DNA of 53,054 nt, taken from contig JAFGMS010000460.1 of the NCBI GenBank assembly GCA_016927375.1, forward strand, positions 1-53,054, written 5' to 3'. This document shows, piece by piece, positions 17,109-53,054 of this stretch (within the stretch, counting starts at the first letter, position 1; every line of letters starts with the position of its first letter). The stretch comes from Anaerolineae bacterium (lineage in GTDB: Bacteria > Chloroflexota > Anaerolineae > Aggregatilineales > UBA3940). The position numbers were made by a program, and so were the translations under genes. The notes beneath the pieces are model-generated. The model had not been told where the DNA came from. It did no database searches and was given only the letters and a program-made list of their open reading frames with translations.

Positions 17109-17615
17109 ATGCGGCATAGAGTAGCAGGTCGTAGCCTTGGGCGCGACACCAATCATCGAAAAATGTTGCGGCGAAATCTGATTACCGATCTGTTTCGCCA
17201 TGAGCATATCAAGACCACGGAAGCTAAAGCCAAGGCGATTCGTGGCCAGGCCGAGAAGTTTATTACACTGGCTCGTAATCGCGGCGATGCAGAGCGGTTG
17301 GTCGAACTGGCAGAGGATCAGGAAGAGCAGGAGTTGCGCCAGTTGCTTACTGATGGTCAGGCTGCACGTCTGCTGAGTTTGTCTGAGGCCAAGGAGACTG
17401 AGCAGATGGAAGACTTGGCGCTAGCAATTGCTGCTCATGCTCAGCGGCTTGTTGCCCGTGATATCACGGACCGAGCAGTGGTAAACAAGCTCTTCCATGT
17501 GATTGCGCCGCGGTATGTCTCACGGCCGGGCGGGTACACCCGAATAACCCGGTTGGGTGCCCGCCGTGGTGATGCGGCTCAGATGGTGATGCTTTCTTTG
17601 GTGGAGGAAGACTAG
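17109..17615 (+). CDS. rplQ: 50S ribosomal protein L17 (with internal acidic insertion)
   Basis: 168 aa. MRHRVAGRSLGRDTNHRKMLRRNL N-terminus and GGYTRITRLGARRGD near the C-terminus. An extra segment of about 40 aa lies in between. Confidence 0.9.
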   Translation: MRHRVAGRSLGRDTNHRKMLRRNLITDLFRHEHIKTTEAKAKAIRGQAEKFITLARNRGDAERLVELAEDQEEQELRQLLTDGQAARLLSLSEAKETEQMEDLALAIAAHAQRLVARDITDRAVVNKLFHVIAPRYVSRPGGYTRITRLGARRGDAAQMVMLSLVEED

Positions 17616-17661
17616 TATTTCGGGGCGTCAGTCAACCCATGCTTATGACCCACCCTGAAAT

Positions 17662-17724
17662 ACTTAAGCAGTTGGGCAAGATAGACATCTTAATTCTGGG
17701 TCTATTTATGCCCAACTACGCTAG
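17662..17724. repeat. Mosaic palindromic repeat unit, copy A (forward)
   Basis: ACTTAAGCAGTTGGGCAAGATAGAC...GTCTATTTATGCCCAACTACGCTAG. Its arms are self-complementary (CAGTTGGGC / GCCCAACT). Homologous units occur at 28884-28947, 44553-44615 (reverse complement) and 52916-52979. Confidence 0.85.
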
Positions 17725-20487: not shown

Positions 20488-21957
20488 ATGAGAGTGATTG
20501 TTGTGGGGATGGGGCCCGGTGATCCTGGACAGTTGACGCGCCAGGCGTGGAATGTGCTCAGCCGGGCAGGTGAGGTTTATTTGCGGACCCGCAGTCATCC
20601 CACTGTGCCTCAGCTGCCGGAGGGACCGGACTATCACAGCTTCGATGATCTGTATGAGCAGGCCACCGATTTCGAGCAGGTCTATGAGACGATTGTCGAG
20701 CAATTGGTATCTCTGGCATCCGAGGGTAGGGAGGTCATCTATGCTGTGCCGGGCGACCCCCTGGTAGGTGAGGGGACCGTAACGCGTCTGGCGGCGGTAT
20801 GTAAAGCAAAGCAGATCGATTTCCTTATCATTCATGGTGTTAGCTTCGTCGAGCCTGCCCTGGCTGTGCTGGGGTTGGACGGTATTTCGGGCATCCAGCT
20901 GCTTGATGCCACCGACTTTGTTGCTGCCTATCATCCCCAGATCAACCCTGATCGCGGTGCGCTGGTGGCACAGGTCTACAGCCAGCAGTTGGCTTCAGAT
21001 GTCAAGCTGACCCTGATGAACCAATACCCTGACGATCATCCGGTCACATTGATCCACGCCGCGGGTACATCGGAGCAGCGTAGTGAGACGCTCCCCCTTT
21101 ACGAGATGGACCGCCGGCCCGTCTCTCATCTGACGACGCTCTATATCGCCCCATTTAGTGCCGACGGGGGCGTTTCGAGCTTCGAGGGTTTCCAGGAGAC
21201 CATCGCCCATCTGCGCTCTCCTGAAGGCTGCCCCTGGGATCGTGAGCAAACGCACCAGAGCCTGCGTCCTCACCTGATCGAAGAGGCCTATGAAGTGCTG
21301 GATGCCATCGATGCAGATGATGTCGATAAGCTGCGCGAGGAGTTGGGCGATTTACTACTTCAGGTCGTCTTGCACAGCCAGGTCGCAGTCGATGAGGGCG
21401 AGTTCCATATGGCCGATGTCATCCGCAATATCGATGCCAAGCTCAAGCGGCGCCACCCTCACGTTTGGGGGCAGGTCGATGTGCAGGGCGACCCTGATCG
21501 GGTTTTGACTAATTGGGAGCAGATCAAGGCTCAGGAGCGAGCCGACAATGGCCAGGAGACTCGCAGCTTGCTCGATGGTATCCCGAAGACATTACCTGCA
21601 TTGGCCCAGGCTCACGAGTATGACGACCGTGCCGTGCGCGTTGGGTTCGACTGGCCGGATGAGCAGGGCGTGATCGATAAGGTCCATGAGGAGCTGGATG
21701 AGCTGTTGGCGGCCGCCACACCTGAAGAACGCCTGCACGAGATCGGCGATTTGCTGTTCGTGATTGCGGTCTGGGCGCGTTGGCTGAAGCTCAGCCCGGA
21801 AGATGCCCTCCGGGCGGCCAATCGACGTTTCTATGAGCGCTTTTCGAGGATAGAGCGTCGCGCCAAACAGATGGGCCGTTCGCTGCGCGAGATGAGTATC
21901 GAGGAAATGGATATACTCTGGAACGAGGCCAAACGAGACCTCGCCGCCGGTAAGTGA
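20488..21957 (+). CDS. YabN-like fusion: tetrapyrrole-methylase-fold domain + MazG NTP pyrophosphohydrolase
   Basis: 489 aa. N-terminus VVGMGPGDPGQLT is the TP-methylase fold. The C-terminal half carries two MazG repeats (EEAYEVLDAI...ELGDLLLQV and HEELDELL...EIGDLLF). Confidence 0.85.
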   Translation: MRVIVVGMGPGDPGQLTRQAWNVLSRAGEVYLRTRSHPTVPQLPEGPDYHSFDDLYEQATDFEQVYETIVEQLVSLASEGREVIYAVPGDPLVGEGTVTRLAAVCKAKQIDFLIIHGVSFVEPALAVLGLDGISGIQLLDATDFVAAYHPQINPDRGALVAQVYSQQLASDVKLTLMNQYPDDHPVTLIHAAGTSEQRSETLPLYEMDRRPVSHLTTLYIAPFSADGGVSSFEGFQETIAHLRSPEGCPWDREQTHQSLRPHLIEEAYEVLDAIDADDVDKLREELGDLLLQVVLHSQVAVDEGEFHMADVIRNIDAKLKRRHPHVWGQVDVQGDPDRVLTNWEQIKAQERADNGQETRSLLDGIPKTLPALAQAHEYDDRAVRVGFDWPDEQGVIDKVHEELDELLAAATPEERLHEIGDLLFVIAVWARWLKLSPEDALRAANRRFYERFSRIERRAKQMGRSLREMSIEEMDILWNEAKRDLAAGK

Positions 21958-21990
21958 AGATGGGTATTGTGCTTTTGTGCAAACGAAAAA

Positions 21991-22016
21991 CAGGTCTTCT
22001 AAGCTTAGAAGACCTG
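21991..22016 (-). terminator. Perfect 26-nt palindrome: terminator for tRNA-Pro, possibly bidirectional
   Basis: CAGGTCTTCTAAGCTTAGAAGACCTG gives an 11-bp stem. On the minus strand it is followed by TTTTT. It lies between the mazG-like stop and the tRNA 3' end. Confidence 0.6.
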
Positions 22017-22022
22017 TGTCAG

Positions 22023-22097
22023 TCGGGGCGGGCGGACTTGAACCGCCGACCTCACGGACCCGAACCGTGCGCGCTGGCCAAACTGCGCTACGCCCCG
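22023..22097 (-). tRNA. tRNA-Pro (anticodon CGG)
   Basis: Hand-folded 75-nt cloverleaf. Acceptor CGGGGCG/CGCCCCG, D stem GCGC/GCGC, anticodon stem CACGG/CCGTG with loop TTCGGGT, T arm GGCGG-TTCAAGT-CCGCC. CCA is not encoded. Confidence 0.9.
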
Positions 22098-28690: not shown

Positions 28691-28947
28691 CCCAGTTCAG
28701 CTGAGCGCAAACAAAACCGGAGTATACGACCATAGGTCGTCGATGTCTTTCTTTCCCAACTGCTTAAGGACTTGTGAAGTTGTTGCTCAAGTCCTCAGTG
28801 TGCCATAACTACGGGTTTATTAATGCTGCGAAACACTAGTGTTTCGCGATAAGTAAGCCGTCAGTTATGGTTACCTAAGAAACACTTAAACAGTTGGGTA
28901 TGAAAGACATCTTTACTACCGGGCTATTTCTGCCCAACCGTACTAGT
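28691..28947. repeat. Composite mosaic repeat, copy B (reverse unit + palindromic centre + forward unit)
   Basis: 27-bp inverted arms GATGTCTTTCTTTCCCAACTGCTTAAG (28742-28768) and CTTAAACAGTTGGGTATGAAAGACATC (28885-28911). The centre holds the perfect palindrome GCGAAACACTAGTGTTTCGC (28828-28847) and CCATAACT/AGTTATGG arms. Confidence 0.85.
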
Positions 28948-29140
28948 CTCCAACCATCTTGCAGGTTGCATGGAGGAAGCTGAATTCACCCCGTGGGGGC
29001 ATCAACTCAAGAATCTCGATAACTTCGAAGTCATTGTTGCCGAGCTTCACGCGATCCCCTACCTGGGGTGGCTTTTCCACGTTGGCGATGGCCCCCGGGT
29101 GCTCACCTCCGACTACCACATAGCTGACTTTGTAGATCAT
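28943..29140 (-). CDS. Small hypothetical protein (65 aa)
   Basis: AAGGAG lies 8 nt upstream of the ATG. The gene sits 47 nt downstream of the cNMP-binding gene on the same strand. I recognise no family. Its stop codon lies in the terminal ACTAG of repeat copy B. Confidence 0.6.
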   Translation of the reverse strand: MIYKVSYVVVGGEHPGAIANVEKPPQVGDRVKLGNNDFEVIEILELMPPRGEFSFLHATCKMVGD

Positions 29141-29755: not shown

Positions 29756-30604
29756 TTGACTATCCTCTGCCTGCATGATAAAATCAACGAACTGTGCCTG
29801 AACATATGTTCTTGTGAGCTCGATATAGTGTCTTCGAAATCAAAATCAAAAGCAAAAAGCAGGGGCAAGACTACTACTCAGCGACCCAAATCGAAGCCAT
29901 CTCTAAGAACCTTGTGGCTTGAGATTTTGTTCTTTGTTGCGTTGGCTGTGTTTGGCTTCAGTGTGGTAGCTCAGTTGCTGGGCAGTGCGTCGGAGACCAT
30001 TCTTCATTTTCCATCTTTGCCATATTCTGAGGAAGACGCCGATGTAGCGACCTCGAGGCTGTATGAAGCTGCCAGTCGGCGTCCTGCTCCTGAGCCTACT
30101 CTCTCGCCCATTTTCATGCCGTCTGTCCAATATTGGAAGGACGATTTGCTGAAATGGTCGGCGGATTATGCTATTGATCCCAATCTTGCTGCTACTGTCA
30201 TGCAAATCGAGTCTTGTGGTGGTCCGGAAGCTATGTCCAGTGTAGGGGCCACGAGCCTTTTTCAGGTAATGCCTTTCCACTTTGAAGAGGGCGAAGATCC
30301 CTTTGATCCCGATACAAATGCAAAAAGAGGTTTGGCTTTTCTTGCCGGAGGCCTGGAGCTATCGAATGGGCATGCCGGGTTGGCCCTTGCAGGATATAAC
30401 GGCGGGTACGGTGTGATTTCTCGTGATTACGAGGACTGGCCTCACGAGACACAAAGCTACTATCGTTGGGGGAGTGGTATCTATCGGGAGGCTTCTGCTG
30501 GGTGGGATAGCAGCCCGACGCTTGTTGCGTGGCTTGCCGCTGGTGGGAAATCCTTGTGCGATGCAGCGGAAGAAGAGCTTGGCCTGACATCCGTTTCGCG
30601 ATGA
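29756..30604 (+). CDS. Lytic transglycosylase (SLT domain) with N-terminal membrane anchor
   Basis: The 5' part of ORF 29531-30604 is antisense to the cNMP gene. The start is set at TTG 29756; GTG 29828 is the alternative. TM segment LWLEILFFVALAVFGFSVVA. SLT block MQIESCGGPEAMSSVGATSLFQVMP...AGYNGG. Confidence 0.72.
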   Translation: MTILCLHDKINELCLNICSCELDIVSSKSKSKAKSRGKTTTQRPKSKPSLRTLWLEILFFVALAVFGFSVVAQLLGSASETILHFPSLPYSEEDADVATSRLYEAASRRPAPEPTLSPIFMPSVQYWKDDLLKWSADYAIDPNLAATVMQIESCGGPEAMSSVGATSLFQVMPFHFEEGEDPFDPDTNAKRGLAFLAGGLELSNGHAGLALAGYNGGYGVISRDYEDWPHETQSYYRWGSGIYREASAGWDSSPTLVAWLAAGGKSLCDAAEEELGLTSVSR

Positions 30605-31859
30605 TTGTCTCAATACTCTTAGCCAGCTATACTGCGTGCGGGCTAGATGCTCACCGCCGAGCACACGGCGAGATAATCAGAAGTCTCTGCTACCTTCATA
30701 AGTGTCGAGGCCGGACGGGCCATTGATATCTTGGTTAGTACGCCAAAGTGTTGGGACGCCACAAGCATCAATTTCAACTCAAACCACGGCTTACACAGAT
30801 TACACGGATGAAGCCAGACTAATCTATGCAATCCGTGAAATCTGGGTAGCACGCGGGAATGACGGAGACAAAGCCGACCAAGCCCGGTTTGGCGCTCATA
30901 ACATCACCCCTGAGAAGCGTAGCAGCTCGATGCGCGATCTGCGTCCCCTATCCGCCTGGCGGATAGGGGGACGTCGCCGGCATAGCTATCAGCCAGCGTT
31001 GCAGGGGGTGAGGTTCAGCGTCCTGCACCTATCAACCACGCTATTTTCGCGTGCTACCGAAATCTGTGCTTTGAATCCTTTTTGGACTGAAGAAGATATA
31101 TCCCAACGCTTTGGCGCGCCGACATATCTTTTGTTTTTGCTGTGGCGACAATCACCTGCTGACCGACGATAGCTGAGTAGTTCGACAATGTCAAGTTTCC
31201 TGGAGCAACCGGAATGGGCAGGAGCGGCTGCTTGTGCTTTCAAACGAAGGATCGACGAAGTAGCGACGGAACTGGAACGAAGAGCGCCTCTTTGAGCATA
31301 GCAACATCGAGAGGTTGCTAAAGTTGACATTGTCAAAGTCGTTGCTGCTTCCTTTTGTGTCTCGGTTCTATGACATCCAGTCTCTCGGTGGGGATTTTCT
31401 CATCCAGAAGAATACTGCCATCATCTTTGGGTGCCCCGCTTGCCTGTGGTAAAATCAGAATCATCTTAGCCTAGTTGGGGCAAAGTGGTTTGGCGGTGAA
31501 GGCACATTGCGATATCCAGCTGTCCAAGTGTTTCAGAATGTACTGTAGTTTCGCCTTTTGTAATTGCTCAGCTCTTAGCCGTTGGCTCTTAGCTTTTCAG
31601 CTTTTCAAGCCTCGATCTGTGACTTGTAAACTCAGACTGGATACTCGTCACGTCTCACGTTTTACATATTTACCTTTTACGCAACCTATAGCTACAGTAG
31701 GAAGCGCAAGGTAGCTGAGTAGTTATCGCCTTTTTAGAAATACGCATAGTTTGTGCTTCAGATTTGCTATAGAGCACACAGAATTTTGGCTCTTTCTCTG
31801 CGCTCTCTGTGGTGAGAAAAGGGCCTAAACCCAAAATCGGCGAAAGTTCAGGAAAGTAT

Positions 31860-31888
31860 TTGCATCACATGCTTATGCCCGATAAAGT
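31860..31888 (+). promoter_or_regulatory. Possible promoter facing hsp20
   Basis: TTGCAT-17 nt-TAAAGT. It would give a leader of about 240 nt. Based on hexamers only. Confidence 0.3.
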
Positions 31889-32135
31889 CTGTCGATAACT
31901 GTAGAGTGAAATGTCGATTTGTTCCTTGACTTTTGAGAAGGGGTATGGCAGGACCGTACATCCAGGAAAGGTTTTGTGTGGTGCAAGAGGGTTGGATACC
32001 TGTCACGGGGGGTGAAAGCTGGTTCGGTTCTCGCCGGCAGGACGCGCGTTCTCGGTTGGAGTGCCAAGTACAGGTTTGTTCTCGGAAGATACGCAGTATA
32101 AGAATGCTGGACAAGGTACAGGGAAAGGCGTGATA

Positions 32136-32567
32136 GTGGTGGATGATAGCAACCACGAGCAACAGGTGGAAACGGCAGAAGTACATTATCACGTACTAAA
32201 GAGTGGCCAGCAGCTACTCCTCGTGCGGCACAGCCATGCCTGGCGTCCACCGACCGACGTAATGGTTGATGACGATTTGCTGACCGTGGTGGTTGAAGTT
32301 GCTGGGATGCAGGCTGGCGAATTTCACGTAACCTTTACCAGTCAACGTTTGACCATCAGTGGTGTGCGATCCCCTAAAGATCAGGGACATGTTGCCTACC
32401 ATCAATTTGAAATCCGATATGGTGAGTTCTGTACTGAGGTGACCTTGCCATGGATTGTTGACGAGGATCAAATCGTTGCGCATTATGAGGATGGTTTCCT
32501 GAAAGTAGAGCTACCGCGTGCTGAGCCACACAAGATAAATGTTGTTGCAGCAGACCGAGATTCGTAG
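32136..32567 (+). CDS. Small heat-shock protein (Hsp20 / alpha-crystallin family)
   Basis: ORF 32061-32567. GTG 32136 lies 7 nt after GGGAAAGG; 32061 and 32130 are alternatives. ACD blocks are WRPPTDVMVDDDLLTVVVEVAGM and AHYEDGFLKVELPR. Confidence 0.85.
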   Translation: MVDDSNHEQQVETAEVHYHVLKSGQQLLLVRHSHAWRPPTDVMVDDDLLTVVVEVAGMQAGEFHVTFTSQRLTISGVRSPKDQGHVAYHQFEIRYGEFCTEVTLPWIVDEDQIVAHYEDGFLKVELPRAEPHKINVVAADRDS

Positions 32568-32767: not shown

Positions 32768-35356
32768 ATGTCACCCAGTGACAAAAAGCGATTGAACAAA
32801 GAAATCGAACAGAAACGGCAAGAAGAGCTGGACACTACTGAGTTGGTCAAGGCTTCTGACGAGGATGATCAAAGTGCATTGGCGCTCACGGAGGATGATG
32901 GGCTGCCAAGAATCCCTCAAGAACTGCCCATCTTGCCACTTCGTGGCATGGTTGTATATCCCCAAACAGTCGTTCCCTTAATGATCGGGCAGCCCCGGTC
33001 GGTGCATCTGGTCGATGATGTCGTCTCGGGGGATCGGTTAATAGGTCTGGTTGCAAGTCACGATCCCGAGAATGAGTTACCTGGTCCTGATGAGATCCAC
33101 AAAGTGGGGACATTGGCTGCTGTCCATCGCCTTTTCCGTGCACCGGATGGGACTCTCCGATTGTTAGTCCAGGGGTTGCTCCGTTTTGATATCAAGGAGT
33201 ACACTGCGACTGAGCCCTATCTCAAAGCCCGGGTTGAACCCAGTCCTGAAGTGCTTGAGACGGGCATTGAGATTGAAGCTTTGATGCGTAACATTGGCGA
33301 GCAGTTCCGCCGGATGGGTGAGCTTAGTCCTAATCTCCCAGGTGATTTGTTATCTTCCACATTGGGGCTGGAAGATCCTCTACAATTGGTCTATACAATT
33401 GCTACCTATATGCGAATAGATCTCAAGGACGCCCAGAACATGCTGGAGATCGACGGCGTCCAGGAGAAACTGCACCGGCTGATGACTTTGTTGGGCAAGG
33501 AATTGGAGGTTCTGGAGCTGGGCCGCAAGATCCAGGCTGATGCCCAGACCGAGATCGACAAAGTGCAGCGTGAGTACATCCTCCGGGAGCAGCTCAAGGC
33601 TATTAAGCGTGAGTTGGGGGAGGGGGATGAGCAGCAGCTTGAGGTAGATGAGATCAGAGAGAAGATCGAGCAGTCGGGGATGCCGGAGGAGGCAGAGAAA
33701 GAAGCCTGCCGCGAGCTTGAACGGTTGTCCAAGCTGCCGACTGCTGCCGCCGAGTATGGTGTGATTCGTACCTATCTGGACTGGCTTACCTCCTTACCCT
33801 GGAAGGTCATTACTGATGACAACCTCGATATTGCACATGCACGTAAAGTGCTCGACGAAGATCATTATGGCCTCGAGGATGTCAAAGAGCGTATTCTTGA
33901 ATTCCTGGCTGTGCGTAAACTGCGCAAGGAGCGGGGCCCGAGGCGTAAATCGAAGGCTGTGCCCACCGATCATATTCGCCGCGAGCGTGAGGGTGTGATC
34001 TTGTGTTTTGTGGGTCCTCCTGGTGTGGGTAAGACCTCGCTGGGTGCGTCCATTGCACGGGCCATGGGACGCAAATTCATTCGGATTAGTCTGGGGGGCG
34101 TACGCGATGAAGCCGAGATCCGGGGGCACCGGCGCACATACATTGGTGCGATGCCTGGTAACATCGTTCAAACCCTCCGGCGGGTGGGAACGCGCAATCC
34201 GGTGTTCATGATGGATGAGATCGACAAGCTAGGTATGGATTTCCGAGGCGATCCGGCCTCGGCACTATTAGAAGTTCTCGATCCCGAGCAAAACTCCGAG
34301 TTCCGTGATCACTATCTGGATGTCCCTTTTGACCTCTCCCAGGTGATGTTTATCACGACGGCCAACCAGCTTGAGCCGATCCCAGGTCCGCTGCGTGATC
34401 GCATGGAAATTTTGCATCTTTCCGGCTACACTGAGACTGAGAAGATACGTATTGCTTCCCAGTACCTTGTTCCTCGCCAGATCCGAGAGAGCGGTTTGCG
34501 TCCGAAAGAGATCAAGTTTACAGACGAAGCCCTGTTGGCTATTGTTCGCGACCATACGCGTGAGGCAGGTGTCCGTAACCTTGAACGTGAGATTGGCGCG
34601 GTTTGCCGCAAAGTCGTTACGCGCATCGCCGAGGGCAAGACCGGCAAAACGACAGTTGGGGTAAAGGCTGTCAGAGAGTTCTTGGGTAAACCTAAGTATC
34701 ACTACCTGGCCGAAGTTGAGGAGCGGACCAATGTTCCTGGCGTTGCTACCGGCTTAGTCTGGACGCCGGTTGGCGGTGATATCATTTTCGTTGAGGCGGC
34801 CCAAATGCCTGGTGGTAAGGGCTTCGTTTTGACTGGCCAACTGGGTAATGTTATGCAGGAGAGCGCCCGTGCAGCCTTGAGCTATGTCCGTTCGCGAGCA
34901 GGTGACCTTGGTTTGGGTGAAAAGTGGTTTAGTAAACATGATATCCACTTGCATGTTCCGGCCGGCGCTGTACCAAAGGATGGCCCATCGGCCGGGATTA
35001 CGATGGCGACTGCTTTGGCATCGCTGCTGACCCAGAGGCCTGTCTCCGGTAATGTTGCTATGACCGGCGAGATTACGCTGCGCGGCCAGGTGCTGCCCGT
35101 TGGAGGATTGAAGGAAAAGGCTTTGGCCGCTCATCGTTTTGGCCTCGATACCATCATTTTGCCTAAACGGAATGAAAAAGACATCGATGATATTCCGGAA
35201 GAGGTGCGTGAGAAGATGAAGTTTGTCTTGGTGGAGCGCGTTGATCAGGTGCTTGAGCATGCGCTGAGTAAGCCTGCCGGATCATCGAAGCCTGCCAAGA
35301 CCCGTAAGCGGGCCAAGACCCAACCAGATCAAAAAAAGGATAAGAGGGTAGAATAG
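32768..35356 (+). CDS. lon: ATP-dependent Lon protease (LonA)
   Basis: 862 aa. Lon N-domain, Walker [10 protein letters not shown], Walker B FMMDEIDK and protease active site [14 protein letters not shown]. Confidence 0.97.
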
Positions 35357-35745
35357 TGTCCTATAAAGTGATGATTGTTGATGATGACAAGCTGACCGTC
35401 AGCTTGTTGAAGACTCTTCTGGAGCTTGATGATTTTGAAGTAATCTCTGTTGCTGAAGGCACGACGGCATATCAGCGAGCGGTGGAAGATCCACCAGATG
35501 CATTCCTGGTGGATTATCATCTGGCTGATGGAGAGGGATCGGATTTCGTTGTGCAGTTGCGCGCTGATCCGGAGTTGTATCAGCTGCCAGTTGTAATGAC
35601 CTCAGGCTTGAACCGTGAAAATGAGGCGATGGATGCGGGAGCAGATTGGTTCCTGATTAAGCCCTTTGATCCCAGTGAGCTGGTCGATGTCTTACAAAGA
35701 CTGCTGGAGGACGCCACATATGATGAGGAAGAAGAATCCTGGTGA
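35356..35745 (+). CDS. Single-domain response regulator (receiver only)
   Basis: 129 aa. MIVDDD acidic pocket, phospho-acceptor context FLVDYHLADG, and KPF near the C-terminus. The GTG start shares one base with the lon TAG stop. Confidence 0.88.
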   Translation: MSYKVMIVDDDKLTVSLLKTLLELDDFEVISVAEGTTAYQRAVEDPPDAFLVDYHLADGEGSDFVVQLRADPELYQLPVVMTSGLNRENEAMDAGADWFLIKPFDPSELVDVLQRLLEDATYDEEEESW

Positions 35746-40329: not shown

Positions 40330-41622
40330 ATGACGTCATCTAAGCATCGTTGGTTCGTCGTAGCTGTGTTCTTTCTTTTCATGCTGCTGCACCAATCTGA
40401 CAAATTCCTGATTGGCCCGCTCACGACGCCAATCATGGAGACCTTTGGTATCGATGAGGCGCAGATGGGCGCTGTATCGACGGGGGCATTGTTGGTTGGG
40501 GCAATTCTTTACCCGGTGTGGGGCTATCTGTATGATCGCTATGCCCGTGCCAAGCTGTTGGCATTGGCCTCTCTCATCTGGGGCTTGACCACTTCTCTCA
40601 ATGCAAGTGCGCCCAATTATGGAACCTTTCTGGCTACGCGCGCCTCGACGGGCATCGATGACTCCAGCTATCCTGGCCTACACAGCATCATTGCCGATTA
40701 TTTTGGTCCTCAGGTGCGTGGGAAGATCTATGGGCTGCTGCAGCTCACCGGCCCATTAGGCTATTTGATGGGGATGGTGCTGGCTTTGGTAATGGGTGGG
40801 GTGATCGGTTGGCGCAACGTTTACTATATCACCGGTGGTTTGGGTGTTTTGCTTGCCGTGGTGATTTTTCTGGGCGTCCGTGAACCGCAGCGAGGTGCTG
40901 GTGAGCCGGAGTTGGCGCAGCTGGCGGAGATCGGCATCCACAAATTCGACCTGGATGCTGCCAAGAGGCTGTTTCGCAAGCCGACCTTGCTGCTTCTGTT
41001 TGTTCAGGGCTTCTTTGGTGTATTCCCCTGGCAGGTGATCACCTATTGGATATTCCGTTATCTTGAAACGGAGCGCGGGTACTCGAGCGATGAGATTCTG
41101 ATCACCATGTCGACCGTCATTCTGATCCTGTCTGCCGGGTATTTCATCGGTGGTGCTGCCGGCGATGCGGCATTCCGCCGCACGCCGCGTGGACGCATGC
41201 TTGTATCGTCGGTCGCAGTGTTGTTGGGGGCTGTCTTTCTTTTCTTTGCGCTGACCACACCGCCCGAGAATCGCCTGATGTTCTTTGTATTCTTGTCCGC
41301 TACCGCCATCTTCATGCCATTCTCTGCCCCGAACATGATCTCCTCTGTGTATGATATTACGCTGCCGGAAGTTCGCAGCACGGCGTTGGCCATCCAGCTT
41401 TTCATCGAGAATGCCGGTGCCGCGACCGCGCCGTTTTTGGCAGGTCTGATCGCTAGGCAGTATGATTTGAAAACGGCCTTTTTGCTGATCTGTATCTCCA
41501 CCTGGGTGCTGTGTACGATTTTCTATTCTGTCGGTGCTTACCTGGTGCCACGTGATGTTGCAGTGCTGCGTGCCCAGATGCGTGAACGTGCTGAGGCGGA
41601 GCAGGCTGTCCAGCCTGGCTGA
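40330..41622 (+). CDS. MFS transporter
   Basis: 430 aa and about 12 predicted TM segments. An MFS-like loop motif, GYLYDRYARAKLL, lies between TM2 and TM3. Confidence 0.88.
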   Translation: MTSSKHRWFVVAVFFLFMLLHQSDKFLIGPLTTPIMETFGIDEAQMGAVSTGALLVGAILYPVWGYLYDRYARAKLLALASLIWGLTTSLNASAPNYGTFLATRASTGIDDSSYPGLHSIIADYFGPQVRGKIYGLLQLTGPLGYLMGMVLALVMGGVIGWRNVYYITGGLGVLLAVVIFLGVREPQRGAGEPELAQLAEIGIHKFDLDAAKRLFRKPTLLLLFVQGFFGVFPWQVITYWIFRYLETERGYSSDEILITMSTVILILSAGYFIGGAAGDAAFRRTPRGRMLVSSVAVLLGAVFLFFALTTPPENRLMFFVFLSATAIFMPFSAPNMISSVYDITLPEVRSTALAIQLFIENAGAATAPFLAGLIARQYDLKTAFLLICISTWVLCTIFYSVGAYLVPRDVAVLRAQMRERAEAEQAVQPG

Positions 41623-41730
41623 TGCCTTGCGTTGCGATAGGCTCATTGCTGCTTTGCAGCTTCTACCCATCTCGTCCTGTCTGTCACCGAAGAAGCCGCT
41701 GCGAGCTCGGTTTTGAGCCTGGGAACCTGT

Positions 41731-41814
41731 ATTTTCTAGGCTAGAAAATTGTTTTTCTAGCCTACAAACTTGATTTTCCAGCCTAGAAAGTTGCTTTACC
41801 AGCCTACAAATCAC
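41731..41814. repeat. Four tandem 21-bp units (TTTTCTAGCCTAGAAANTTG-like)
   Basis: Unit 1 (41731) is ATTTTCTAGGCTAGAAAATTG. Unit 2 (41752) is TTTTTCTAGCCTACAAACTTG. Unit 3 (41773) is ATTTTCCAGCCTAGAAAGTTG. Unit 4 (41794) is CTTTACCAGCCTACAAATCAC. Unit 1 contains the palindrome TTTTCTAG-G-CTAGAAAA. Confidence 0.9.
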
Positions 41815-42231
41815 AGTCTCACGCCGGGGAAAACACAATTTCCCTCGGCGTGAAATTTGTTACCCCAGAGCTCATTGCAGAAAAGAACGGACGGGAAAAC
41901 AAAACAGGGTAGGCGAGGTGAGTGGTTTTGCCTAGCGGGAGTGTTCAAGGAGACGCTGTAATGATGCCAGCAGGTAAGCAGATCGGCTCCACGTGGGGAT
42001 TGGGGAAGTTGTGCTGTGGTGGAAATCCATGCTACAGTACCAAAATGCACGGGGCCTAAGAAAGTTACGCACTGCCAACGTAATCTCAGCGTTCCGGCGC
42101 CGCAACTGGTTCTGCGAGCTATGCGTACAGTATGGTAAGAGGTGATGCAACCAATCGTGGTGTGTATCTCAGATCAAAAACTGAGAGCCGGCAGCTGATT
42201 GCTGAAAGCTTACCTGCGAGAGAGGAAATGT

Positions 42232-44552: not shown

Positions 44553-44698
44553 TTAGTACAGTTGGGTCTAAATAGACCCGGAGTTAGAATGCGCTTCTTG
44601 CCCAACTGTTTAAGTGTTCCATGGCAAGCCACAACTAAGGGTTTACTTAGGCCTCGGAACACTGGTGTTTCGCGGCAGAGAACGCCGAGAGCGCAGAG
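44553..44698. repeat. Mosaic repeat copy C (reverse unit + half of central module) abutting a CTCTGCG-type half repeat
   Basis: 44553-44615 is the reverse complement of the copy A/B unit. 44616-44674 matches the copy B centre (CCACAACTAAGGGTTTACTTAGG...GGAACACTGGTGTTTCGCG). 44673-44698 reads CGGCAGAGAACGCCGAGAGCGCAGAG. Confidence 0.8.
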
Positions 44699-48093: not shown

Positions 48094-48373
48094 AATCAAT
48101 CTCCGTAAATGGTAATACTTGTCAGAATATGGGTAAACATCCAATGTCTGGCACAACCGCCATGTGGAAGTTTCACACATTCAGAACAAAGCTCAACTAT
48201 ACAACAAGTCAGTTTCAATAAGGATACGATACACACAACTTGTGAATGGTATCCAACGTTGTGTGGGGTAGGGGGATGCTGCTCTAGATCGAGGAAAACA
48301 AAAGACCGCGCTCCTGTTCAGAAACACGGCCCGGGCAGATAACAGAGGATATCTCATGCTCCTCTGCTCAGCT

Positions 48374-48553
48374 TCATTTGATTTCGATGACCTCACGGTC
48401 TCGATAGTGCCCACAACTCTTGCAGACGGTGTGTGGGAGTTTCATCTCGCCGCAGTTTTCACAAGCAACTAGGTTTAACGGCTGTAGTTGATCGTGCTGG
48501 CGACGGCGCCCACGCCGTCCTTTGGAAACCTTGCGTTTTGGTAGCGGACCCAT
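48374..48553 (-). CDS. rpmF: 50S ribosomal protein L32 (zinc form)
   Basis: Not in the ORF track. Hand translation gives MGPLPKRKVSKGRRGRRRQHDQLQPLNLVACENCGEMKLPHTVCKSCGHYRDREVIEIK, with CxxC...CxxC. Confidence 0.88.
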   Translation of the reverse strand: MGPLPKRKVSKGRRGRRRQHDQLQPLNLVACENCGEMKLPHTVCKSCGHYRDREVIEIK

Positions 48554-48694
48554 AACAGATTCTACTCCTGATCCTGACAGTAGTTACCCGGCCTGACGCC
48601 GGGCACAGGTCCAGATTATATCGGACCTGCCGGAGGTGTCAAGATTTTGCCCGTAAAGCGCGTTCCTACATAACAATGAATGAATCAGTACCTG

Positions 48695-49255
48695 CTAATC
48701 GCGCCTGGTCTGGATACGCTCGATGCGCATTGGCTCGCTGGTATCCAGCGTCGAGGGCGTATCGATCTCGGTTGGTGTGGGCTCAGGTTTGTCGCCTGGT
48801 TTACGGGCTGCTGTCTCGGTCTGAACATGAGCGATTCCATTGCGAACCACCATCAGTGTGCGATTGAGCGCATCTTCCAAATCAGAAAGCACGTCCATGA
48901 CATACTGATCTGCGTCGCGGCGGATGCTGTCAGCTTCCTGGCGGCTCTGCTCGATGATACTGGCCGCGCGTGCCTGGGCTGCCTGTGTGATGCTGTCTCG
49001 CTGGATGAGCGTTTCACTTTTCTTGTGTGCCAGCTCACGAATCCTGGCAGCCTCCTCATTTGCCTGAGCGATCACACGCTCCCGCTCGCGCAGGATACGT
49101 TTGGCCTTTTCGATCTCTTCAGGAATTGATATGCGCATCTGATCGATCAGTTCAAGCGCGTGCTGCTCATCGACTACCGTCTGGGCGGTGAATGGAAGGT
49201 GACGACCGGAGTTGAGCATTTCCTCCAAACGATCCACCAGATGTTGTATGTCCAA
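48695..49255 (-). CDS. Coiled-coil protein of unknown function (DivIVA / ATP-synthase-b-like composition)
   Basis: ORF 48695-49309. In-frame TTG 49255 lies 6 nt after GGAGAGGAGG. Long charged helical region EEIEKAKRILRERERVIAQANEEAARIRELAHKK. Sits between coaD and rpmF. Confidence 0.55.
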   Translation of the reverse strand: MDIQHLVDRLEEMLNSGRHLPFTAQTVVDEQHALELIDQMRISIPEEIEKAKRILRERERVIAQANEEAARIRELAHKKSETLIQRDSITQAAQARAASIIEQSRQEADSIRRDADQYVMDVLSDLEDALNRTLMVVRNGIAHVQTETAARKPGDKPEPTPTEIDTPSTLDTSEPMRIERIQTRRD

Positions 49256-52608: not shown

Positions 52609-52915
52609 AGCGTTTTCAAATTCCCTTTCCCAGAATTGACTGCCGACGGGTGTTTCGCGGCATACATAAGCTCATAGTCATGACCATGCGCGAGAACATT
52701 GAGCACTTGCTCAAAATAACGGCTCAACGACAAAAAGTAGGGTTGGTGAACGTGTTGGGTGGCGGTCGGCCGGTAGAGCAGGAGAAGAATAGTCGAGAAA
52801 TCAACTTGCTCGTGCTGCCACCCAACCTACGGAATTCCGCCTTAGCATACCTCACTTGCATACTTAGGTGACATTTCCCCACTTTTCCGCGTTGAGCCAA
52901 AATAACTTCACACGT

Positions 52916-53054
52916 CTTTAAGCAGTTGAGCGTCGAAGTAATCCGCACCCTGAGTTTATTGATGCCTAACTGTACTAGTACTTTGCGGCGGAAATCTGTA
53001 TCCAGTCGAGAAGTGCAACGCAAAGTACTTTATACAGTTGGGAAGATTGCCTTA
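52916..53054. repeat. Mosaic repeat copy D (forward unit + hairpin + start of reverse unit, cut by window end)
   Basis: CTTTAAGCAGTTGAGCG...GATGCCTAACTGTACTAGT (52916-52979). Hairpin arms GTACTTTGCG (52978-52987) and CGCAAAGTAC (53019-53028). TACAGTTGGG restarts at 53033. Confidence 0.8.

Follow-up and report, generated by a model that had tools for sequence, protein, structure and literature searches.

Palindromic repeats and orphan DNA as the probable origin of an expanded, gene-free SLT-hsp20 spacer in an Anaerolineae contig

Several described systems can be compared with a long non-coding region lying between two bacterial genes. Among repeated elements, these are the bacterial MITEs and the whole-length imperfect palindromes, e.g., ERIC/IRU, Correia elements, RUP, and the cyanobacterial Nezha. 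Upstream of small heat-shock genes, they include the thermosensors located in the 5' UTR, such as ROSE, fourU, and the leader of the cyanobacterial hsp17; in known thermometers, a short stretch (from tens of nt to about 120 nt) is folded around the Shine-Dalgarno (SD) sequence. REP units, for their part, measure 20-40 bp and combine a stem of 8-9 bp and a loop of 4-5 nt with a CGTC tag left unpaired and a CCA tail; they are found in tens to thousands of copies, and the stem of the CGTC type starts with A-T pairs (PMC3733652).

We analyzed a contig of 53,054 bp from an Anaerolineae metagenome-assembled genome (MAG), hereafter called the window, in which the stop of the SLT gene (30604) and the start of hsp20 (32130 or 32136) are separated by a tract containing no credible gene. 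This gap (30605-32135) is the largest gene-free one of the contig (1471-1531 bp, the next ones measuring 654, 595, and 576 bp), as the preliminary description, which had reported a tract of about 1.5 kb without gene, rightly stated. We consider that the tract is probably an SLT-hsp20 spacer, normally short, that has expanded in this lineage through palindromic-repeat insertion and orphan DNA, and not an RNA gene or a recognizable pseudogene. Its features are collected in Table 1.

Table 1. Features of the tract between SLT and hsp20 (window coordinates)
Feature	Position	Strand	Description
SLT 3' flank	30605-30724	.	Unremarkable non-coding DNA; folding z = -0.1; no homologue in relatives
Foldback FB1	30725-31128	.	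404-bp imperfect long inverted repeat; nested inverted repeats I3, I1, I5
FB1 repeat-unit core, left-arm copy	30843-30879	+	GGTAGCACGCGGGAATGACGG...AGCCGACC; conserved
FB1 central hairpin	30942-30973	.	Perfect 12+12 palindrome at 30945-30969
FB1 repeat-unit core, right-arm copy	31034-31066	-	CGGTAGCACGCGAAAATAGCGTGGTTGATAGG on the minus strand; conserved
T-run	31129-31139	+	TTTTGTTTTTG, directly 3' of the foldback base; read from sequence
13-nt direct repeat	31170-31182; second copy 31712-31724	+	TAGCTGAGTAGTT; exact
157-bp segment bounded by 18-nt inverted repeats	31181-31337	.	Inverted repeat I2, 16/18 positions
Conserved hsp20 promoter block	31420-31461	+	CTTTGGG-N18-TGTGGTAAAAT; shared with relatives
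Lineage-specific insert of about 0.6 kb	31462-32075	+	Between promoter and proximal leader
Proximal hsp20 leader	32076-32135	+	Homologous to relatives

The tract is non-coding, because the codon scores of its open reading frames (ORFs) are at the level of shadow ORFs and because the Pfam, six-frame, and phmmer searches all came back empty. Indeed, the ORFs listed in the preliminary description are present and, as it suspected, not protein-like: they score from -0.07 to -0.26 per codon, the means being +0.27 for genes and -0.15 for shadow ORFs. No Pfam domain was found in eight tract ORFs; a blastx-like six-frame search with the 40 stop-free fragments of at least 30 aa, concatenated, returned no match among 5.8 billion proteins, and phmmer with the longest ORF (156 aa, 30702-31169) returned none among 1.84 billion representatives. 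Metagenome scans using a tract ORF and using hsp20 gave no match for the bulk of the tract, and the small ORFs with an SD sequence are weak candidates only. The tract could also derive from one or several decayed protein genes, as proposed at first, e.g., from an AI-2E-family permease such as that of the L113 lineage, a reading that we find very unlikely. At the related loci L113 and L114, a permease gene lies on the minus strand upstream of the hsp20 promoter, with an FB1-like core just 3' of it, and the right arm of the foldback is oriented as would be expected if it had flanked, on the 3' side, a minus-strand gene since lost. However, no frame of the tract showed similarity to a known protein or domain in these searches, and tblastn with the L113 permease gave at best E = 0.64, with fragments that are not collinear, so that a permease pseudogene was rejected. 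The permease is, moreover, missing from all the other loci checked, and an insertion in the L113 lineage is more likely.

The second identity put forward at first, an RNA locus, fared no better. With Rfam 15, searched on both strands over the whole window and the tract, no tract match reached the gathering level; the sole match at this level in the window is a tRNA (22023-22097), and the best sub-threshold match of the tract is Thermales-rpoB (18.8 bits vs. 77.3 required, E = 0.58). ARAGORN found no tRNA or tmRNA in the tract. An oriC was also rejected: the tract carries one single-mismatch DnaA box, and the window has 11 matches for 9.5 expected, i.e., the chance level. As for the hairpin-rich character attributed to the tract, it holds for 30725-31128, whose folding exceeds that of shuffles (z = -6.0 and -5.1 for the plus and minus strands, respectively), and not for the other parts, which fold as shuffles do (Table 1 for the SLT flank; 0.0 and +1.4 for 31140-31420; 0.0 for 31462-32140). 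The foldback is the only part of the tract that folds better than shuffles; among native 400-nt windows, it ranks in the top 1% or so, but is not the highest.

The comparison with relatives shows how unusual this spacer is. The SLT-hsp20-lon synteny is conserved among them, and the SLT-hsp20 spacer measures 9-376 bp in 15 syntenic relatives (9-376 bp in 11 GTDB loci and 130-249 bp in further contigs); the closest relative, P0002, has an SLT 89% identical to that of the window. Only three pieces of the tract are common to relatives, i.e., the promoter block, about 55 nt of the proximal leader, and a short core of the foldback arm, so the bulk of the tract is not conserved; lack of conservation, together with lack of transcription, had been given in the preliminary description as counting against its reading. 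In the same way, blastn and nhmmer searches of the tract against the contig, 115 loci, PLSDB plasmids, and INPHARED phages recovered only the promoter block and the foldback-arm core. Because, in the L113 lineage, the hsp20 promoter is preceded by the permease gene and by about 1 kb devoid of genes, and because three independent contigs stop 42 nt after the SLT stop, the spacer appears to be a rearrangement-prone hot spot in the clade. Related contigs do end within or beside the element, and inverted repeats break or confuse short-read assemblies, so that a chimeric or foldback join could be suspected in this MAG contig. We regard such an artefact as hardly credible: synteny is intact on both flanks, the promoter and the proximal leader are in the correct order and orientation, and the arms of the foldback match at about 76% with indels, unlike perfect artefactual palindromes.

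The conserved promoter block is composed of a -35-like box, TTTGGG (31426-31431), and an extended -10 box (31445-31455). When the tract is compared with the L001 spacer, nothing else matches significantly (score 42 for this block vs. 21+-2 for shuffles). Sixteen other loci each possess one T[AG]TGGTA[AC]AAT block upstream of hsp20, located within the SLT-hsp20 spacer in 15 of them and downstream of the inserted permease gene in L113, and the motif occurs once in the window. By sequence, the window and these 16 relatives thus share the organization of a sigma-70-type extended -10 promoter, i.e., a CTTGGG-like box, N17-19, and T(G/A)TGGTA(A/C)AAT. This block, overlooked in the preliminary description, is 680 nt from hsp20 here vs. 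61-352 nt in relatives. The promoter that had been placed at 31860-31888 agrees with the consensus at only 7 positions out of 12 and is not among the matches of our promoter scan, which are not enriched in the tract (5 vs. 2.5+-1.6 expected). The hsp20 leader of about 240 nt that would start from 31860 is less well supported than the leader of about 680 nt predicted from the conserved promoter.

Between this promoter and the proximal leader, the insert has a lower G+C content (42-47%), no structure (z = 0.0), ORFs at shadow level, and no similarity in the contig, loci, plasmids, or phages. The proximal leader contains CGGAAGAT at 32083-32090 and an SD-like GGGAAAGG at 32121-32128, the start codon of hsp20 being the GTG at 32130 or at 32136, and CGGAAGATRCGCA is 41 nt away from the start here vs. 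42 nt in L001. We examined the view that the tract, chiefly 31462-32135, serves hsp20 as a long functional 5' leader carrying a regulatory RNA (thermosensor, binding platform, or upstream ORF). A conserved promoter 680 nt upstream without predicted terminator in between, a leader length that varies among relatives (up to about 350 nt, in L113), and an ORF (31933-32133) whose stop codon overlaps the GTG at 32130 (GTGA) would all be consistent with it. It is nonetheless improbable in our opinion: the insert folds like shuffles and has no homologue in the leader of any relative, no match to ROSE, fourU, or another Rfam family was obtained at E<=10, and the upstream ORF has a non-coding score (-0.12) and is not conserved, the L105 leader having a 6-codon mini-ORF in that frame.

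The foldback is built as an inverted duplication. Its left arm (30725-30956), which contains an additional local hairpin at about 30792-30848, and its right arm (30958-31128) are collinear when the latter is reverse-complemented, with 130 matches out of 172 (z = 6.7). The number of arm mismatches compatible with G-U pairing is 7 for the plus strand vs. 13 for the minus strand, and there are 13 transversions. These collinear inverted copies and the lack of a strand-biased G-U pattern point to a DNA-level inverted dimer. At its center, the hairpin noticed in the preliminary description is borne out: its palindrome lengthens to 15 bp with one bulged G, and a 12-bp stem was reached in none of 300 shuffles.

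The repeat-unit core of FB1 was found elsewhere, in both cases at contig ends. The left-arm copy has its match, on the minus strand, at the start of L113/L114 (score 32 vs. 19.1+-2.2 for shuffles, 1/500 as high; E = 0.14 for the arm-profile match), after the permease gene, and the right-arm copy matches the tail of L082, 41-75 nt past the SLT stop (score 38 vs. 19.5+-2.2, 0/500 shuffles). In three lineages, the core lies each time just 3' of a gene and in the orientation of this gene. Between the lineages with the core, the SLT proteins are 23-27% divergent and the adjacent spacer DNA is unalignable, so that the conservation of the core could equally reflect selection for function. On the contrary, the closest relatives (L001, L081, L105-107, and L112) are devoid of FB1, and their promoter lies 47-188 nt after the SLT stop. 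In scans of viral contigs, the palindrome had no match and the arm motif had 22 single matches, which corresponds to the chance level, none of them extending.

Two readings assign a function to FB1. According to one, it would be a functional structured RNA located between SLT and the hsp20 promoter, i.e., a long-hairpin ncRNA or a 3'-end element acting in cis, conserved as a bidirectional terminator/insulator or as an RNase III target. Its strong folding on both strands, the plus-strand T-run directly after the hairpin base, the maintenance of the core 3' of genes, a weak plus-strand promoter-like site right after the SLT stop, and a minus-strand 10/12 site (31194-31166) speak for this reading, which we nevertheless hold to be unlikely. 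Indeed, the arm mismatches have no strand bias, a 1-nt loop with a perfect palindrome is typical of DNA palindromes, and Rfam has no match; the element is absent from the six relatives cited above, and promoter-like matches are not enriched. Moreover, the terminator scan found no intrinsic terminator on the plus strand of the tract, T-run included. The T-run is a possible terminator tail for SLT read-through, to judge from its position; what precedes it is a 404-nt foldback whose stem base is A+U-rich, vs. the short G+C-rich hairpin followed by a U-tract that defines a terminator. According to the other reading, to which we grant only a slight probability, FB1 would consist of two inverted copies of an Anaerolineae element not yet described, which would be selected at gene 3' ends as a structured RNA/DNA signal. 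The core would then be about 60-100 nt (TCCAAAAAGG...TAATCT...GGTAGCACGCGRRAATARCGTGG...AGCCGACC), kept in lineages with more than 20% protein divergence, and it may act, e.g., as a bidirectional terminator/insulator or as a processing site shielding the heat-shock promoter.

Other repeats were detected in the tract. The two palindromes described at first as a pair are real and are the two arms (31181-31198 and 31320-31337) of one 18-nt inverted repeat, which none of 100 shuffles equaled at 16 matches; each contains a TTGACA(A/T)TGTCAA-type palindrome that is missing from the relatives' spacers. The interior of the 157-bp segment thus bounded is unstructured (fold z = 0.0 and +1.4), and the segment may be MITE-like or a protein-binding pair. 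Among the smaller repeats of the preliminary description, the 13-nt direct repeat is exact but of modest significance, a repeat of at least 13 nt also occurring in 2% of the tract shuffles (p about 0.02), and the CTCTGCG-type repeat (31796-31814) is under the TRF threshold. A simple target-site duplication was rejected for the 13-nt repeat, whose copies bracket the ancestral promoter. Neither this repeat nor half of the tract (31129-31419 except the arms of the inverted repeat, together with 31462-32075) is positively explained.

A second foldback, FB2 (28742-28911), lies 2 kb upstream with the same architecture as FB1. In FB2, two copies of a multi-copy 115-nt repeat are demonstrably joined head to head; this repeat is present in the window as four full-length copies, including the two of FB2, and two partial ones; three further copies are found in the relatives L001 and L081. 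A copy of this repeat inside the tract was rejected, the weak match (E = 0.35) being lost with a better profile. The mobile-repeat reading is thus supported by the FB2 precedent in the contig and by the FB1 core in L082 and L113/L114; against it, flanking duplications are absent, no parent transposase is in view, and FB1, the 157-bp segment, and the 0.6-kb insert each occur only once in the 53-kb contig, the presence of multiple copies being the key property of a mobile repeat.

Under the expansion that we favor, the ancestral hsp20 promoter would have persisted in the middle of the tract. Upstream of it, about 0.6-0.75 kb would have been gained, i.e., the foldback, with two inverted repeat units joined head to head, and the 157-bp segment with its terminal inverted repeats; downstream, featureless DNA (about 0.6 kb, from 31462 to about 32075) would have been added before the last 55 nt or so of conserved leader. 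The likely origin would be small non-autonomous palindromic repeats (MITE-like or REP-dimer-like), together with insertion/deletion debris, in a repeatedly remodeled spacer. SLT read-through RNA would then form the long foldback hairpin followed by the T-run, and may terminate or be destabilized before the heat-shock promoter, and hsp20 transcription would start either at the conserved promoter, giving an unusually long leader (about 680 nt), or at a new promoter closer to the gene. If this is true, the tract is ordinary, palindromic repeats and indel debris having swollen a spacer and left the heat-shock promoter 680 nt from its gene. Repeat-driven spacer remodeling would be documented in uncultured Anaerolineae, for which hardly any description of such elements exists, and the locus would offer a natural test case of the tolerance of an sHSP gene to a very long leader. 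Attention is also drawn to two repeat families at which short-read assemblies of the SLT-hsp20 locus break.

With regard to the known systems, the foldback shares with the large bacterial ncRNAs (OLE, GOLLD, ROOL, HEARO, and raiA) a length of several hundred nt, an intergenic location, and strong folding. However, it has no Rfam match at any threshold and no strand-specific wobble signature, its pairing is a simple collinear inverted duplication and not a multi-domain fold, and it is missing in most close relatives. As with the thermosensors, a non-coding region stands upstream of an hsp20-family gene and downstream of a conserved promoter, but the extra 0.6 kb is here unstructured and unconserved, with no ROSE or fourU match. 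With the REP head-to-head dimers (BIME-like; GTAG/CGTC-tagged), FB1 has in common the inverted arrangement of a palindromic unit, the possibility of forming large hairpins or cruciforms, and a central hairpin starting with CGTC. On the other hand, this CGTC is paired with GACG, the stem is of 12-15 bp and G+C-rich, the loop is of 1-3 nt, and the unit is of about 170-230 nt, at one locus in 53 kb. Membership of FB1 in the CGTC-type REP, as defined in PMC3733652, was rejected on its paired CGTC, stem, loop, and single copy.

The MITEs differ from the tract elements in that FB1 and the 157-bp segment have no target-site duplication (flanks GCCATT|...|TTTTGT and GTAGT|...|GTCGT, respectively), no second copy in 53 kb, and no cognate transposase seen. 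FB1 is single-copy in the contig, with FB1-like cores in two other lineages, one of them beside a different gene. Like MITEs, the tract elements are small (about 150-400 bp), non-coding, and intergenic, with terminal or full-length inverted repeats (130/172 in FB1 and 16/18 at 31181-31337); they show a patchy locus presence among relatives and can give long hairpins when co-transcribed, and the contig that carries them also harbors a multi-copy 115-nt element with a dimer architecture like that of FB1.

The contig, a complete 53,054-bp piece of an uncultured Anaerolineae (Chloroflexota) MAG, carries the tract (30605-32135) between an SLT-domain transglycosylase gene (SLT, stop at 30604) and an hsp20-family gene followed by lon, as assigned by Pfam and synteny. 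In a codon-usage gene map, the SLT-hsp20 gap (1471-1531 bp) is the largest gene-free gap of the contig, the next three measuring 654, 595, and 576 bp. All tract ORFs score between -0.07 and -0.26 per codon, i.e., at the level of shadow ORFs (mean -0.15; real genes, mean +0.27). The tract is non-coding, and both results confirm the preliminary description of it as an ORF-poor stretch. Two further gene-free gaps, of ~0.6 kb each, lie at 41622-42199 and 48100-48695. A candidate RNA locus or a decayed gene had been proposed. No Rfam family was found for the tract at gathering level or at E ≤ 10, sHSP thermometers and large structured RNAs included, and neither a tRNA nor a tmRNA. On the protein side, the tract contains no Pfam domain, its six-frame concatenate has no homologue among 5.8 billion proteins, and a full phmmer search of 1.84 billion representatives gave none for its 156-aa ORF. 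The tract fits no known family of RNAs or proteins, and we hold a decayed gene to be highly improbable. Plasmids and phages show no similarity to it, and it lacks a DnaA-box cluster.

The SLT-hsp20-lon synteny is kept across Anaerolineae relatives, with a short SLT-hsp20 spacer of 9-376 bp in 11 GTDB loci and 130-249 bp in four further contigs. The bulk of the tract aligns to none of these spacers and, as judged from this syntenic comparison, is not conserved. Against the nearest relative (L001), the sole significant shared block is 31420-31461 (score 42 versus 21 ± 2 for shuffles). A single copy of this block, composed of a CTTGGG-like box, a spacer of 17-19 nt, and T(G/A)TGGTA(A/C)AAT, stands upstream of hsp20 in the window and likewise in 16 other loci; 15 of the 16 have it in the SLT-hsp20 spacer, and the last, contig L113, has it downstream of an inserted permease gene. 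TGTGGTAMAAT is found nowhere else in the 53 kb of the window. We read the block as an hsp20 promoter with an extended -10, whose strong conservation the alignments show, and CTTGGG-N17-19-T(G/A)TGGTA(A/C)AAT may be a dedicated heat-shock promoter type or a regulator site in the clade. The promoter formerly suggested at 31860-31888 fits only 7 of 12 consensus positions.

The distance from the block to hsp20 is 61-352 nt in relatives (median ~120 nt) and 680 nt in the window; that to the SLT stop is 42-242 nt and 840 nt, respectively. Leader alignment is limited to the final ~55 nt ahead of the start codon. The tract therefore consists of the ancestral promoter and proximal leader with extra DNA on both sides of the promoter, ~0.6-0.75 kb before it and ~0.6 kb within the leader. 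If this distal promoter is in use, hsp20 would have a ~680-nt leader; we regard a function for so long a leader as quite unlikely. The hsp20 start itself is ambiguous within 32076-32141: relatives, which have GGGAGGCGGCGTGATG, probably start at an ATG, and the window has ATA there; a TTG at 32076 would be the start of the deposited 163-aa protein (P0121), and the remaining starts, GTG at 32130 or 32136, stand behind a weaker SD sequence (GGGAAAGG).

The tract had been called hairpin-rich, which holds for 30725-31128 only (z = -6.0 and -5.1), whereas its other three segments fold like shuffled DNA. Among native 400-nt windows, this foldback, FB1, falls within the top ~1% without being the highest. 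Its two arms form a long, imperfect inverted repeat: the left one is collinear with the reverse-complemented right one (130/172 matches, z = 6.7) and carries an extra ~42-nt local hairpin. The proposed hairpin at 30942-30973 is real and contains a perfect 12+12 palindrome (12-bp stem in 0/300 shuffles). FB1 is an inverted duplication. Among its arm mismatches, 7 are G-U-able on the plus strand and 13 on the minus strand, with 13 transversions and no strand bias, the pattern to be expected when the halves of a DNA-level inverted duplication drift apart neutrally, and not under selection on one RNA strand. Together with the T-run at 31129-31139, the hairpin could act as a terminator or insulator of SLT read-through; that the foldback is a functional structured RNA or 3'-end element seems unlikely to us.

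The FB1 arm profile matches the last 96 nt of a relative's contig, L082, 41-75 nt past its SLT stop, and the first 37-86 nt of contigs L113 and L114, immediately downstream of an AI-2E permease gene that runs on the opposite strand. Core pairwise scores are 38 for L082 (reached by 0/500 shuffles) and 32 for L113/L114 (1/500), against 19 ± 2 for shuffles; the core recurs outside the window locus. All three contigs end within or beside the FB1-like element, which is what one would see if assembly broke at an inverted repeat or a multi-copy sequence; that the tract is itself an assembly artefact is scarcely credible. In the lineage of proteins P0010/P0129, three independent contigs (L109/L110/L111) break at the same base, 42 nt past the SLT stop, and in front of the same promoter block the hsp20-side contigs (L113/L114, 1-2716) carry the AI-2E-family permease and ~1 kb devoid of genes; their leader measures ~350 nt. 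The spacer has therefore been independently remodelled there. The tract holds no trace of this permease.

A second foldback, FB2 (28742-28911, z = -6.6), lies 2 kb upstream of the tract and has the same design, i.e., a perfect palindrome at the center of nested inverted repeats. One half of it shares 85% identity with L001 DNA at another locus, directly after the hsp20 stop. Profile searches revealed a dispersed, intergenic repeat family of ~115 nt with two hairpins (AGTGTTTCG...CGAAACACT and CAGTTGGG...CCCAACTG), compensatory changes in 5 of 26 base pairs, CTAG at both ends of most copies, different loci in related genomes, and no Rfam match. Copies lie in the window, L001, and a further relative's contig (L081), and FB2 is a head-to-head dimer of this repeat, joined at a central CTAG within the perfect palindrome GCGAAACACTAGTGTTTCGC; by analogy, FB1 would be a dimer of another unit.

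Copies of the 115-nt repeat, its stop-codon overlaps, and a separate segment of the tract
Feature	Location	Strand	Basis or adjacent gene
115-nt repeat, full-length	window 17610-17724	+	profile search
115-nt repeat, full-length	window 28694-28841	-	profile search
115-nt repeat, full-length	window 28834-28947	+	profile search
115-nt repeat, full-length	window 44553-44667	-	profile search
115-nt repeat, partial	window 52649-52709 and 52915-52979		profile search
115-nt repeat	L001 5410-5524	+	profile search
115-nt repeat	L001 2847-2944	-	profile search
115-nt repeat, partial	L081 4812-4869		profile search
CTAG/TAG overlap	window 17613-17615		gene ending 17615
CTAG/TAG overlap	window 28943-28945		small gene 28943-29140, minus strand
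CTAG/TAG overlap	L001 5409-5411		L001 hsp20
157-bp segment bounded by inverted repeats	within tract		

Dispersed palindromic repeats are present in this genome. The 115-nt family would be new for Anaerolineae; it looks like a MITE/REP-like element, or else a small structured RNA. In three cases its terminal CTAG overlaps the TAG stop of the adjacent gene, a hint that copies inserted at CTAG sites where genes end. The lactamase-to-small-gene spacer that bears FB2 measures 50-549 bp among relatives. Elsewhere in the window, perfect palindromes with very short loops and no T-tract occur at 21990-22017 (14+14) and 41737-41764 (12+12), in gene-free gaps after genes ending at 21957 and 41622, and at 35387-35407 (10+10), inside the predicted gene 35356-35745; the two intergenic ones may represent the host's terminator style.

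We favor, with some reserve, the view that a spacer prone to rearrangement has been expanded by non-coding DNA specifically in this lineage. On this reading, three components would surround the conserved hsp20 promoter: a palindromic repeat unit in the form of an inverted dimer, a 157-bp segment with inverted repeats at its ends, and orphan DNA amounting to ~0.9 kb. Its weak points are that target-site duplications are lacking, that FB1 has no second copy in the 53-kb contig, and that the positive explanation covers half of the tract and leaves aside the 13-nt direct repeat, which is indeed exact but equalled in length in 2% of shuffles. The supposed paired palindromes proved to be the two arms of one 18-nt inverted repeat (16/18 positions, matched in 0/100 shuffles), and the CTCTGCG repeat is negligible. 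The hsp20 promoter motif and the covarying, CTAG-flanked 115-nt family are possibly more useful than the tract itself.

FB1 is probably of mobile origin. The tract falls outside the published definition of CGTC-type REPs, and it differs from MITEs in that no target-site duplications were found. It has the structural features of MITEs; the known systems that it resembles are bacterial MITEs, palindromic repeats of the whole-length type, and head-to-head REP dimers. It is real yet largely ordinary, an expanded spacer that contains a foldback or palindromic repeat.
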